A stretch of 64,000 nt of DNA from Eledone cirrhosa (taxonomy: Eukaryota), in the NCBI GenBank assembly GCA_964016885.1, contig OZ024763.1, forward strand, positions 26,660,001-26,724,000. The letters are read 5' to 3'. Made by a program: the position numbers and the translations under genes. The notes under the pieces are model-generated. The model saw only the letters and a program-made list of their open reading frames with translations. It searched no databases and had not been told where the DNA came from. Of the stretch, positions 336 through 55,472 are shown in pieces. Numbering within the stretch: position 1 is the stretch's first letter; each line of letters opens with the position of its first letter.

Positions 336-487
336 TTGTCACGAGGAGGTCACAGAATGTGTGACGAAAGAACTTTGATAAACAGATGCATAACGAACAA
401 TAAAGATAAAGAGTGCGGGTCTTTGTTTCTGTTGGTAATATTGGCGACATGACCATCCTCAAATATAACAATATCGGTTTCAACACA
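336..487 (+). mobile_element. Family B element with decayed hammerhead (336-381)
   Basis: ttgtca-C(-)GAGGA-G-GTCACA gaatg TGTGAC-GAAA-GAAC-TT-tgataa. Helix II matches the intact motif at 30536-30580, but the core lacks U4. The family B tail follows. Confidence 0.6.
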
Positions 488-659
488 TGATTTCACAGAC
501 ACACACACACACATATAGGATAGAGGTAAATTTTACCCGACGCTGTTCTTGACAACATTTTGCTGTCTTAAAAGCTTCTTTGCGTTGAGTTATTCTCCCT
601 ATTCTACAATTTCTAATATACTCGGGCTTCAAACTCGATATTCGAGATAACTTTGTCTT

Positions 660-1232
660 TATATATACTAACAGAAAAACCACCTTTCGGGTAGTTTTCT
701 GCTAGCATGTGTAGAGTGTATATTGATGAATGTAGATATGATACGTCAAATAAAATCGTAATTGACAATATACATAGAAATTGAACGAAGACTGCGTTAC
801 ACTGTCTTATGTAATCAGTAAAGTAATCCATGATACATTAAAAACAGACGATATTATACAAATCCCGTCGAGGTTAACTTTGCCTTTCATCCTTACCGGG
901 TCGATAAAATAAAGTACCAGTAATGCTAGTAATTGCTGGCCTTGTGCCAAAGGCAGAAACAATTATATATAAACTGCATTATGAGAAAATTAGTGACAGA
1001 AATATATGAATGTCTATTTAAGCGATCGCTAACCGGAAGTGTTGATATTTGAAAATTTTAAAGAAGTGAATCTTAAAATAAGCAACAAAATTATTTATAT
1101 TTAATCAAGCATAACGAAATTTAGTAGATAAATTATGTAATATTCATTCATTATTTATTCAAAGTAATCCAACTTATTTTACAAACGAGTTAAAAAAATA
1201 TATTCTGGACGCAGTCCTTACTTTATTATAGT
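660..1232 (+). repeat. Unclassified interspersed repeat, family D, copy 1
   Basis: Homologous in reverse complement to 36525-37740, e.g. TTAGTAGATAAATTATGTAATATTCATTCATTATTTATTCAAAGTAATCCAAC. Confidence 0.7.
863..965 (+). mobile_element. 5'-truncated tRNA/Nin-like SINE (family A) inserted in family D
   Basis: GAGGTTAACTTTGCCTTTCATCCTT..GGGTCGATAAAATAAAGTACCAG...GGCCTTGTGCCAAA. It is absent from the second family D copy. Confidence 0.8.
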
Positions 1233-1302
1233 TTAGATATATGTGTGTGTGTATGTGTGTGTATTCTGTATCTATCCTTTGTGACCCAGTCTCTATTTTT
1301 GT

Positions 1303-1337
1303 ACTCCTAAAGAAGGGCTAAAGCCCGACACGTTGAA
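1303..1337 (+). ncRNA. Decayed hammerhead motif
   Basis: CTAAAGA-A-GGGC taaa GCCC-GACA-CG-TT has two core substitutions. The downstream AAGCG(G/T)GAA(A/C)CTAA tail is shared with 14455-14520. Confidence 0.5.
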
Positions 1338-1888
1338 TTTTCTTTCCGCTTTTCCATATAAAGCGGGAAACTAAGAAGACTTTATGTACCTGTGTTGTCG
1401 TTTCCTTGAACTACACACACACACACACACACACACACACACACACACACACACACACATATATATATATGTGTGTGTGTGTATATATATATATATATAT
1501 ATACATACACTGATCGACGATAACAGCATAAAGCAACCATTTCTCTCCTCAGTATATCATTAAAAGAATGTTCTTTATTATCAATAGTGACTTTCCACGG
1601 CACCACCACCACCACCACCACCACCAACAACAACAACAACAACATCAGCAGCCAAACCTAATCTCCATATCTAGTTCCTATTATAACCTTTCTCTTCACA
1701 AGCAACAGCTTGTCTTCTATTGAATATCTCACCAGTGTTCCCACCATCACCAGCAGCAGCATCATCATTACCATCATCATCATCACGATCTTCTTCTTCT
1801 TCTTCTTCTTCTTCTTCTTCTTCTTCTTCTTCTTCTTCTTCTTCTTCTTCTTCTTCTTCTTCCATTACGTTTGATCAGTTGATTCAGA

Positions 1889-2730
1889 TGAAGTGTTTTG
1901 CTCAAGAACACAACCCAGTCCAGGAATCAAACCCACGACATTAAGGCCGTAAGTCCAACACCCTTACCACTGGAGCAACGTGAAAGGAAGTGTTTTACTC
2001 AAGAACACACACAACACACAGCTCAGTCCAGGAATCAAACCCACGACATTAAGGTCGTAAGCCCAACACCCTTACCACTGGATCAACGTGAAAGGAAGTG
2101 TTTTACTCAAGAACACACACAACACACAGCTCAGTCCAGGAATCAAACCCACGACATTAAGGTCGTAAGCCCAACACCCTTACCACTGGATCAACGTGAA
2201 AGGAAGTGTTTTACTCAAGAACACAACACACAGCTCAGTCCAGGAATCAAACCCACGACATTAAGGTCGTAAGCCCAACACCCTTACCACTGGAGCAACG
2301 TGAAAGGAAGTGTTTTACTCAAGAACACACACAACACACAGCTCAGTCCAGGAATCAAACCCACGACATTAAGGTCGTAAGCCCAACACCCTTACCACTG
2401 GAGCAACGTGAAAGGAAGTGTTTTACTCAAGAACACACACAACACACAGCTCAGTCCAGGAATCAAACCCACGACATTAAGGTCGTAAGCCCAACACCCT
2501 TACCACTGGAGCAACGTGAAAGGAAGTGTTTTACTCAAGAACACAACACACAGCTCAGTCCAGGAATCAAACCCACGACATTAAGGTCGTAAGCCCAACA
2601 CCCTTACCACCGGAGCAACGTGAAAGGAAGTGTTTTACTCAAGAACACACACAACACACAGCTCAGTCCAAAAATCGAACCCACGACATTCATTATAGTC
2701 ATAGGTCCGACACCCTTATCATTAGGCCAC
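1889..2730 (-). repeat. Tandem array of ~7.5 SINE heads (tRNA head plus start of CORE-like region), 104-108 bp units
   Basis: Unit starts at 1973, 2081, 2189, 2293, 2401, 2509 and 2613. The reverse complement matches the 5' part of the SINEs at 16542 and 55498. Confidence 0.85.
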
Positions 2731-2829
2731 CCACCCACACACCCACACCCACACACAGAGTCACAGAGAGAGAGTTACATACACGTATTATACACAAACG
2801 ATTTACCAAATTAATTTCTCTATAACACA

Positions 2830-52622: not shown

Positions 52623-52750
52623 TCTGTCTGATGGTCCTACTAGTGTGTAGGTGAAACTCCAGAGTAACAAGACTCACCACTTAGCTTTATTAAATGTATA
52701 TTTAAACTCTACTTCGGTATTGAGTACTTTATCTCACATCCGTGATATAT
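52623..52750 (+). mobile_element. Family F element: hammerhead with A9G change (52623-52672) plus 3' tail
   Basis: tctgt-CTGATGG-tcctac tagtgt gtaggt-GAAA-CTC ca GAG-TA-acaaga. A homologue lies at 54705-54830. Confidence 0.65.
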
Positions 52751-54704
52751 ATAATACACTTTTATATATATCCATCTCTCTCTCTCCCCCCCTCTCTCTC
52801 TCTCTCTCTCTCTCTCTCTCTCTCTCTATATATATATATATATATATATATATATATATATATATATATATATATACAACATAGAAAACAATCAAATGTT
52901 TGTTTAATGCATCTAATTGTTAATTTTCTTACTGGTAATTGGGTAATACAAAATATTACCCTTATCTTATTTGTAATTATATATATAAGTATAAATATTA
53001 TATATATATATATATATATATAGATAGATAGATAGATAGATATATAAATATATATATATACACACACACATCTATCTATTTCTCTCTCTCTCTCTATATA
53101 TATATATATTATATATATATAAATACGTTTTAAACACAAATGTATGGTACCTAAGGTTTCAAACACCATCTAGCATAGGACATAAACATTCTACACCTGC
53201 CAGTTTAGTGATCTTCAAGCAAAACCAAGATGGCCGAACATGTGCGCTTGACACACACACACACGTATATATATATATATATATATATATATATATATAT
53301 ATATAAGGAAAAAAGATGAGATCGAAAATGCAACTGTTGCATTTTCGATTTCATCTTTTTTCCTTATACTTTCACTCGTGTAGGACATCTCGTTTTTTTT
53401 TTTTTTCATTAAAAAAAACCCTCATTTTCTTATATATATCTACATACACACACACATATATATGTGTGTGAGGCGCGTGGCTTAGTTGTTAGGGTGTTCG
53501 ACTCACTATTTTAACGTGTTAAGCTTTATTCCCAGCGGTTCATTGTATTTTGAGCAACACATTATATCTTACTCAAGTAATAATTCATCTCTTGAATCTA
53601 CCATTCATCGTGACACGCTCAATCTCCTGAATTTTTTTTCTCCACCAAAACCTATTTAATTTCAATCCAATATGAAGCATCTAAGCTATCGCTCGACCTG
53701 GTAGAAGTAGCAATTAAATCTATCGCAAATGACGGTATTTCAATGAGGATGAGAAATGGTTGGCGGGAGAACACATAATATAATATATTTTCTTAGTTCA
53801 GACTCAAGGAGTTGGTGTTAAACCTAACACAACTTAGCGTCCGAAACGTTAAAACGTAATTCATTAAGCGTGAAACTAATATATATATATATCTTCATTT
53901 CATTGTACTTTATCGTCTGTTGTGTTTTTCCCTTTTACTTTTCACACATGAAGGACCGTGACAAATGGAGAGATGGTGTGCTGAATAGGACCCGTCCAAC
54001 TCTTGCAAGCAGGGAAAAGCGGACGTAAAATGATGATGATGATGTTATATACATACATACATACACACACATTAGTATAGTTCATAACCATGGTTATATA
54101 TATATATATAACTATTTTTCCCATTTTGACGCTATAGTCACTTATATATTATGGAATACTGTTGGCTTTTTGCTACAATATTTTCTATACCTTTCATTTA
54201 TATATATATATATATATATATATATATATATATATATATATATCTTCGGTTAGCTTTCCCCTGTGTTGTTTACTTGTCTCACTCGCTTTACGCGTTTTAA
54301 TTGTCCTAATAACTTATTTTAGTTATTATTGCACCAACGTGAGGTATATGATTTTTAATGCAATGAAATACCAATGACCGTTGGCAAATCACTGATGAGG
54401 GACTCATTTTATAACATGTTATCCATGTGCAACCATGCAGTATTCTTCTCCCCATATTTTTCACACATATACATATATATATATATATATATATATATAT
54501 ATATATATATATATATATATATATATATATATATATATATATATGGAAAAAGATGAGTATTGACGTACATGTACGTCAATACTCATCTTTTTCCATTTAT
54601 CTGAGGGTTCTAAGCCCCATTATCAGACTAAAATTTCTTTAGTCAAAGAATAGGGTGAAAGCTATTCTATTTTCTAATATATATATATATGTGTGTGTGT
54701 TTAT

Positions 54705-54830
54705 ATATGTTCATTTTATTAAGGCTAACTAGTGAGGTTTGTTACTGGAGTTTCACCTGTTTATCACAGATGAAACTCCAGATTAACAAGACTCATGATT
54801 TAGCCTTAATAAAATGAATATTAAAACTTT
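54705..54830. mobile_element. Family F element folded back at helix II
   Basis: TTCATTTTATTAAGGCTAA...CTGGAGTTTCA cctg tttatca caga TGAAACTCCAG...TTAGCCTTAATAAAATGAA. Confidence 0.7.
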
Positions 54831-55015
54831 ATTTCTTAGCCATCAACCACATACCTATCTCTCTCTCTCTCTCTCTCTCTCTCTCTCTCTCTCTCTCTCT
54901 ATATATATATATATATATATATATATATATATATATATATATATATATATATATATATATATATATATATATATATATAAATTGGATTAAATGCTCTGAA
55001 ATAGCGATATATATG

Positions 55016-55308
55016 TGAAGATAGACATAGAATATTCGAAAATATTCTGTATGTTTATAATAAACATTTTGAAGACCTAATCGCTATAGAATAGAATACG
55101 TCACGTATTACAATTAGATTCTCGATAAAAGCACTGGATATGTAATCCTGAAGATTTCTAATAAGAATGAAACGCGTAGGTTACTTCCCTTGCTTTTATC
55201 GAGAATCTAATTGTAATACGTGACGTATTCTATTCTATAGCGATTAGGTCTTCAAAATGTTTATTATAAACATACAGAATATTTTCGAATATTCTATGTC
55301 TATCTTCA
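55016..55308. mobile_element. ~117-bp inverted repeat enclosing a hammerhead
   Basis: 55016-55133 is the reverse complement of 55191-55308. Flanked by (TA)n. Confidence 0.85.
55142..55184 (+). ncRNA. Minimal type I hammerhead ribozyme motif
   Basis: gtaatc-CTGAAGA-tttct aata agaat-GAAA-CGCG-TA-ggttac. Confidence 0.82.
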
Positions 55309-55413
55309 TATATATATATATATATATATATATATATATAAGCAAAGGGATATCCAGGTAAAACTCGAACCGTGAAGATCTCGGATATGTCAATATTTAT
55401 AAAACAAACTTTG

Positions 55414-55472
55414 TATTTTATCTGATGAGTGCGTACCAAAGTTTTGGTACCCTTGAAATATATAATATAATA
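55414..55472 (+). ncRNA. Type I hammerhead motif (11387 family)
   Basis: tattttat-CTGATGA-gtgcgtaccaaa gt tttggtaccctt-GAAA-TATA-TA-atataata. Confidence 0.68.

Follow-up and report, generated by a model that had tools for sequence, protein, structure and literature searches.

Hammerhead ribozyme motifs, Penelope-like elements and TA repeats in a 64-kb window of the Eledone cirrhosa genome

What are the many hammerhead ribozyme motifs between the microsatellites of a cephalopod genome, and how did they get there? We addressed this question for a 64-kb stretch of Eledone cirrhosa DNA (assembly GCA_964016885.1, contig OZ024763.1, positions 26,660,001 to 26,724,000), here called the window, which belongs to a 3.0-Gb assembly and is dense with microsatellites. 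The original prediction, made from the letters of the window, had listed 16 intact and three decayed motifs and had regarded them as short ribozyme-bearing elements mobilised into TA repeats by Penelope-like elements (PLEs). In our best explanation, to which we give a probability of roughly 0.8, the type I motifs are the 3' ends of truncated PLEs together with tandem non-coding families, lying in TA repeats, where a Penelope reverse transcriptase (RT) likely copied them in; the motifs are predicted to cut their RNA.

Hammerhead motifs in the window

All 19 predicted sites were found in place. The CUGANGA, GAAA and UH blocks follow one another in this order (C-G-S) in all 16 motifs listed as intact, as had been claimed, and the core changes expected at 336, 1303 and 52623 are present. 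A strict type I descriptor (exact CUGANGA and GAAA, UH, helix I of at least 4 bp, helix III palindromic or of at least 4 bp, helix II optional) detected 13 motifs, every one among the 16, against a mean of 0.04 and a maximum of 1 in 100 dinucleotide shuffles of 200-nt blocks. Pairable flanking helices had been ascribed to all 16; these 13 pass strictly, and the other three have an intact core and one weak helix each: a 3-bp helix I at 3424, a helix III of 2 bp around a 2-nt loop at 30536, and at 51853 a substitution relative to the family majority that breaks helix III. Descriptors requiring helix II passed 8 motifs each (0.03-0.11 in shuffles, 0 in reversed sequence). Motifs failing clean helix II rules have bulged or long helix II domains and were judged by eye or by folding; at 11606-11685 (minus strand) and 51859-51938 (plus strand) these domains, of ~60 nt, belong to abundant families, and usual descriptors would miss them. 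Over 11 families, 4.45 of 5 helix I pairs could form within a family versus 2.16 across families (0 of 100,000 permutations), the within-family figure being lowered by the 3424 set, which was placed one base off. These results show that the hammerhead motifs are real and not chance matches.

The Rfam hammerhead models gave no match in the window at gathering thresholds; the best score was 15.5 bits (HH9, at 29674-29780) where 52 are needed. An Rfam scan by E-value was set aside, being dominated by microRNA models on TA repeats. Relaxed-core scans of the window found no further motifs, and the other bare CUGANGA sites (e.g. 10680, 28243, 12366 and 31769) have no motif around them. The original prediction had overlooked a motif of SGC order (site, GAAA, CUGANGA) at 54330-54410, as well as decayed ones near 232-307 and 51775-51830. 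A CSG-order reading at 51897 was dropped, since it falls within helix II of the 51853 motif.

The helix sequences had been described as mostly unrelated, which did not hold. The motifs at 11229 and 11387 are identical, those at 52264, 55414, 50125, 50533 and 14653 form one class (seven window motifs share one motif class), and 336 matches 30536 at 88%. Genome-wide, three patterns gave 57,896, 110,400 and 5,038 matches versus 0, 3,749 and 0 for the reversed patterns, the first set being mostly a subset of the second, which represents one motif class. For one motif class the genome-wide density is at least one motif per 27 kb. The window carries 6, 6 and 1 matches to these patterns versus about 1.2, 2.4 and 0.1 expected, so that it is richer than the genome average.

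The motifs had also been placed in islands bounded by (TA)n. On the 3' side this was upheld: (TA)5+ lies at a median of 85 nt from the cleavage site versus ~485 nt for random non-repeat positions (P=0.0004, with three sites placed 1-2 nt off), and within 200 nt downstream of the predicted cleavage site in 14 of the 16 motifs versus 5.2 expected. On the 5' side it held less well, the median being 227 nt and the distance exceeding 500 nt in 6 of the 16. The TA boundary of the motifs is therefore chiefly 3'.

Parent elements and tandem families

Linkage to an open reading frame (ORF) was established for three families, 11387, 14653 and 30536. Upstream of the 11387-type motif, pairs of minus and plus motifs kilobases apart enclose RT and GIY-YIG endonuclease frames; these are partial in L089-L094 (L numbers denote loci fetched from the genome), and L093 has a motif-to-motif unit of 4.16 kb. 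Upstream of the 14653 motif lies an intact frame with RT and GIY-YIG motifs (L192:1392-3791, plus strand, 821 codons, of which the 800 amino acids from the ATG were used), a candidate active element for biochemistry. The layout is a single ORF, RT followed by a C-terminal GIY-YIG, with the DKT, CxCX5C linker, CxxC and CxH motifs, in agreement with the published Hydra clade (PMC8557442; here and below, statements on cited work refer to the parts of each source available to us). The RWK position is RWT in L192 and RWR in the DNA of L092 and L093. Both families have (TA)n targets and a hammerhead in the terminal repeat, as for the Hydra clade, and the Atlas neighbours of the Hydra-type ORF carry HTH_animal, GIY-YIG and RVT_1. 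The 11229/11387 and 14653 elements are accordingly assigned, by motif match to the published description, as 5'-truncated ends of autonomous ~4-kb PLEs of the Hydra clade, and by its sequence 52264 is a close subfamily of the 11387 element. The motifs at 50125, 50533 and 55414 are placed in a Hydra-associated class by motif, without an ORF link. A tRNA-like short interspersed element (SINE) at 55497-55830 (plus strand) directly follows the 55414 stub, and the related locus L207 has the same neighbour.

RT and GIY-YIG frames with a Cys-rich linker precede the 30536 motif, of which 336 is a decayed relative; in L189 the GIY-YIG upstream of such a motif scored an E value of 8e-4, under the curated cut-off. 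Judging from these frames, 30536 belongs to the 3' end of a further PLE whose endonuclease is C-terminal. The window holds two copies of this family's 3' end, 1-135 (which leaves the left window edge) and 30361-30640. For the 14455/1303 class, decayed Neptune-like ORF remnants lie upstream in some of 30 loci, among the matches listed, including remnants with a Cys-rich linker in L101 and L130; the 14455 element is likely the 3' end of a decayed Neptune-like PLE. A decayed motif of the 4-nt-palindrome class at 53800-53870 (plus strand) ends in (TA)6 and has lost CUGANGA. The abundant families 11599, 51853, 17425, 33464 and 3424 are without a known parent.

Two further families are tandem and non-coding. 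The 55142 family has a 310-nt monomer, with 13 copies in one arm of L014, and the 29684 family a 472-nt monomer; each monomer contains one type I hammerhead. No ORF of at least 90 amino acids was listed across 54976-55317, the 310-nt monomer has a folding z of -4.4, and monomers within an array are near-identical and carry array-specific alleles. Both families, seen here as DNA, would fit non-LTR (long terminal repeat) retrozymes. One 340-nt contig of the 310-nt monomer (7-8 differences, compared with L014:1600-2529) was found in each of three sequencing runs that bear other organism labels; a closed cycle would yield such a contig, but it was not counted as a sign of a circle, because a DNA tandem array gives an identical contig. 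None of the runs listed is recorded as an RNA run. From the shared insertion anatomy described below we infer that PLE enzymes mobilise the tandem families. The expectation of type I hammerheads in many families, mostly with palindromic helix III and tied to PLEs and TA repeats, was thus borne out; the label of short ribozyme elements suits 55142 and 29684 and fails for 11229/11387, 14653 and 30536, which are assigned as PLE 3' ends with an ORF upstream.

A scan of the window for all block orders found one SGC-order motif, that at 54330-54410, versus 0.01 per shuffle. It belongs to a young tandem family of 533 nt with 1941 first-look candidates and one fixed end. Helix I was examined in hits chosen by spacing and helix III only, at 250 other loci: among 15 distinct hits, helix I is complete (5 of 5 pairs) in 12, its strands coming in several different sequences, and the reversed control gave 0. 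Canonical helix II pairs are visible in the relatives L238 and L212, and the window copy has no canonical closure of this helix. In several SGC relatives an extra helix prolongs helix III. The SGC order is known from database and environmental sequences (PMC10085705).

Two-armed insertions and their possible origin

Many insertions consist of two sense-outward arms that run into (TA)n and meet at a junction of variable position. The arms end at two fixed distances downstream of the cleavage site: ~131-139 and 165 nt in the 310-nt family, 164-169 and 242 nt in the 472-nt family, ~45 and ~135 nt in the 14653 family, and ~50 and ~140 nt in the 11387 family. One short and one long end were found in 27/28, 10/10, 18/20 and 25/25 loci of these families, respectively, i.e. 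in 80 of 83 loci taken as best hits or as chosen minus/plus pairs; the exceptions are one long-long and two unresolved. Not counted in the 310-nt family were L007, where two insertions adjoin, L014, whose left end lies out of view, and L028-L030, which have one arm; in the 472-nt family, three duplicates, six one-armed loci and a locus with one end out of view were likewise omitted. A reading of the inverted arms as miniature inverted-repeat transposable elements was excluded, as both arms are sense-outward, unequal and variably joined. At one marker the arms of all 18 loci were concordant by majority (10 A/A, 8 T/T). In 14 loci the arms differed by 1.2 within versus 4.3 between loci (0 of 100,000 permutations), and in a second comparison by 1.32 versus 1.55 (P=0.00015). 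The short and long ends together with the shared alleles suggest priming from both target strands on one RNA.

In the explanation we prefer, element RNA would run past the hammerhead into the next unit, either as an uncut multimer or as a religated circle, and the endonuclease would cleave a (TA)n target on both strands. Reverse transcription would be primed by each of the resulting DNA ends, on one RNA or on two RNAs of one source, from one of a pair of internal positions 3' of the ribozyme. The two start sites would usually be TA-rich tracts 26-90 nt apart, TA pairing helping at most of them. The two cDNAs would meet back to back, their junction varying in position, so that the outward arms have one short and one long end. 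Arrays would arise from a circle or an uncut multimer, and new insertions would add TA tracts usable by later ones. The shortest stubs would keep the ribozyme, and its density would be high, because copying would start just 3' of it; the majority of copies are probably stubs without activity. A role of circles as templates has been proposed before (PMC4209133). The anole PLE protein, a predicted dimer, cuts and extends both strands in vitro, with two internal RNA start sites that define the tail (PMC11167929).

It is possible, though we rather doubt it, that the motifs are kept as RNA structures that serve protein binding or priming, not efficient self-cleavage, and that the templates are uncut linear multimers instead of circles. 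The inserted arms do span the cleavage site intact, and for the anole PLE the main substrate was uncut RNA and no RNA-seq ends were detected at the site (PMC11167929). Against this, the catalytic cores are kept in most copies, e.g. in 144/153 and 104/106 hits of two families, which are young, and near-identical monomers with array-specific alleles are what rolling-circle copying predicts.

That most motifs are independent non-autonomous retrozymes borrowing PLE enzymes appears unlikely. Such a description holds for 55142 (310 nt), 29684 (472 nt) and 54392 (533 nt), and eight motif families have no linked ORF. However, 11229/11387, 14653 and 30536 run upstream into PLE ORFs, 52264 is 87-90% identical to the 11387 stub, and the 5' ends of copies vary freely.

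More improbable still is a fold-back origin of the second arm, as a DNA copy made from the first cDNA. Such copying would account for the shared alleles and the inverted layout, and the clustering of 310-nt family junctions at an internal inverted repeat agrees with it. In 16 of 25 loci the short-ended arm extends further 5' while the tail is unique to the long-ended arm; each arm therefore contains sequence absent from the other, as is also the case in the window at 11098-11492 and 14615-16430. Neither arm can thus have templated the other, and simple fold-back is excluded at those loci; for the multimeric families and the other 9 of the 25 it is possible. Finally, chance matches in AT-rich low-complexity DNA, which the bare CUGANGA count (29 versus 14-18 in shuffles) and the Rfam result might have favoured, are refuted to near certainty by the shuffle and reversed-pattern controls, with 8-13 full motifs versus ~0.1 or less.

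Several observations weigh against the explanation by truncated PLEs and tandem families copied by a Penelope RT. Among 280 fetched loci no ORF was linked to 3424, 11599, 17425, 33464, 50125, 50533, 51853 or the tandem families, and sequence searches of Pfam and PDB assigned no name to the Hydra ORFs (Pfam was blank for both). The 533-nt SGC family lacks a second arm in 30 loci. Within the 310-nt family, the long end has no TA tract and L008 has two long ends. The end-scored loci as a whole are no random sample, and L003 and L005 are possibly one duplicated insertion. Conversion between arms, or two RNAs of one source locus, would also explain the shared alleles. Ribozyme cleavage was dispensable for anole PLE insertion in vitro (PMC11167929), published minimal PLE hammerheads cleave poorly (PMC4209133), and 8 of 9 Xenopus dimers were without cleavage (bioRxiv 10.64898/2026.07.22.740005).

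A fuller scheme, which we advance tentatively and at slightly under even odds, joins these elements: Penelope enzymes would prime both (TA)n ends on one RNA at two internal sites, circular ribozyme-cut templates would give the arrays, and active SGC hammerheads would occur in young animal retroelements that, unlike the type I families, are one-armed.

Hammerhead motifs and associated elements of the window (assignments follow the motif, frame and family comparisons in the text)
Feature	Positions	Strand	Basis and remarks
Decayed SGC-order hammerhead remnant	232..307	+	88% to intact SGC motif in locus L002
Decayed type I hammerhead, 30536-family relative	336..385	+	Core change; 88% to 30538-30579
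Decayed type I hammerhead, 4-nt-palindrome class	1303..1345	+	Two core changes; class of the third genome-wide pattern (5,038 matches)
Type I hammerhead, C3 3465, N17 3427, helix I 3 bp	3419..3472	-	Intact core; 5 related copies among fetched loci
Two-armed stub assigned to Hydra-clade PLE	11098..11492	both	Full-length relatives with RT and GIY-YIG ORF in L089-L094; long-ended minus arm (tail ~90 nt) and short-ended plus arm, each running into (TA)n; the hammerheads, C3 11285 (minus) and C3 11395 (plus), are identical
Type I hammerhead element, C3 11685, N17 11606, 61-nt helix II domain, 8-nt palindromic helix III	11563..11745	-	1735 first-look genome candidates
Minimal type I hammerhead, C3 14459, N17 14486, 4-nt palindrome	14450..14565	+	Likely 3' end of decayed Neptune-like PLE
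Two-armed insertion assigned to Hydra-clade PLE	14615..16430	both	Matches L192, which has intact ORF; short-ended minus arm of ~1.7 kb, which bears the hammerhead (C3 14715, N17 14661); long-ended plus arm, tail alone
GIY-YIG endonuclease remnant	15950..16327	-	Residues 696-821 of intact L192 frame; tblastn 96.8% identity, E 2e-50
Type I hammerhead element, C3 17469, N17 17431, closed 4-bp helix III	17340..17536	-	3568 first-look candidates; partial copies near 18753, 31274
Two-armed insertion, 472-nt tandem retrozyme-type family	29580..29989	both	Hammerhead on plus strand, C3 29692, N17 29757, 8-bp helix I, 8-bp closed helix III
Assigned 3' end of C-terminal-endonuclease PLE, hammerhead C3 30575, N17 30541	30361..30640	-	RT/GIY-YIG upstream of motif in relatives
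Type I hammerhead element, C3 33468, N17 33517, 8-nt palindrome	33359..33570	+	Descriptor scans
Type I hammerhead, Hydra-associated motif class, C3 50181, N17 50131	50125..50189	-	Motif pattern
Type I hammerhead, same Hydra-associated class as 50125, C3 50580, N17 50542	50533..50590	-	Motif pattern
Type I-like motif, C3 51822, second helix I pair mismatched, probably decayed	51775..51830	-	Helix II unclear
Type I hammerhead, C3 51859, N17 51938, helix II domain ~60 nt, helix III damaged	51850..51965	+	Folding, family comparison
Stub of subfamily near 11387 Hydra element, hammerhead C3 52321, N17 52272	52214..52410	-	87-90% to 11181-11514
Decayed type I hammerhead, A9 changed	52623..52675	+	No relative among fetched loci
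One-armed copy of young 533-nt tandem family with SGC-order hammerhead at ~54330-54410	54241..54470	+	N17 54348, GAAA 54365, C3 54392
Two-armed insertion, 310-nt tandem retrozyme-type family	54976..55317	both	Hammerhead on plus strand, C3 55148, N17 55178, 6-nt palindrome
Type I hammerhead stub, Hydra-associated class, C3 55422, helix III with 3 nt inserted	55340..55492	+	Relative L207

Two tandem arrays also lie in the window. That at 1908-2690 has 7.3 copies of a 108-bp unit at 96% identity, and looks SINE-derived; that at 25150-26128 has 5.7 copies of an AT-rich 169-bp unit without a CUGANGA core.

Comparison with known systems

Earlier work has described PLE hammerheads, retrozymes, TA targeting, inverted arms tailed at one end (PMC8557442) and massive hammerhead families in animal PLEs and retrozymes, e.g. 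126,247 motifs in axolotl. The census is this published pattern, at unusually high density. The literature searched, with most subscription papers and the supplements of Craig 2021 and Eckert 2023 outside it, held no cephalopod hammerhead census, no short/long rule and no animal SGC motifs.

The 11387 and 14653 families resemble the Hydra clade (Craig et al. 2021, PMC8557442) in their single ORF with C-terminal GIY-YIG and the DKT, CxCX5C, CxxC and CxH motifs, and also in the hammerhead, (TA)n insertion, partial tandems, inverted 5'-truncated arm and one-end tail. They differ in a unit of ~4.1 kb versus <3 kb, RWR or RWT versus RWK, a tail of ~90 nt versus 30-40 nt, and tens of thousands of stubs where few further families are described. 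Type I architecture, a palindromic helix III and a bulge after A9 are shared with the minimal hammerheads described for metazoan PLEs (Cervera and de la Pena 2014, PMC4209133), as are the many families per genome, the predominance of single motifs from truncated elements and the opposite-strand pairs 100-700 bp apart. Unlike those hammerheads, one class here numbers at least 110,000 versus 2,000-9,000, and two families have ~60-nt helix II domains.

Metazoan retrozymes (Cervera and de la Pena 2020, PMC7229834; Li, Clavereau and Pollet, bioRxiv 10.64898/2026.07.22.740005) likewise consist of non-coding units a few hundred nt long, repeated in tandem and each bearing a single type I hammerhead; their RNA is structured and they occur alongside PLEs. 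The 472-nt monomer exceeds the 170-400 nt of the former report and lies within the 51-972 bp of the latter, and the two-armed insertions with fixed unequal ends are without counterpart in the available parts of both descriptions. The motif at 54330-54410 shares with type-SGC hammerheads (Eckert et al. 2023, PMC10085705) the block order and a helix I followed by a short linker. Unlike those, it lies in dispersed animal repeats, is known from its sequence, and has no canonical helix II closure in the window copy. A working SGC-order hammerhead in an animal retroelement, if true, would extend this fold beyond its published descriptions.

The closest likeness in mechanism is to the Anolis Poseidon PLE in vitro (Frangieh et al. 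2024, PMC11167929), with two internal RT start sites 3' of the hammerhead and both strands cut and extended. The start site there is non-homologous to the target and the same on both strands, whereas here the sites are mostly TA tracts and differ between arms. The useful part of this comparison is mechanistic, namely how Penelope elements complete insertion and what their hammerheads do. The short/long rule together with the shared alleles makes a sharp prediction for the in vitro system, for which the intact Hydra-clade ORF and the young passenger RNAs would be reagents.

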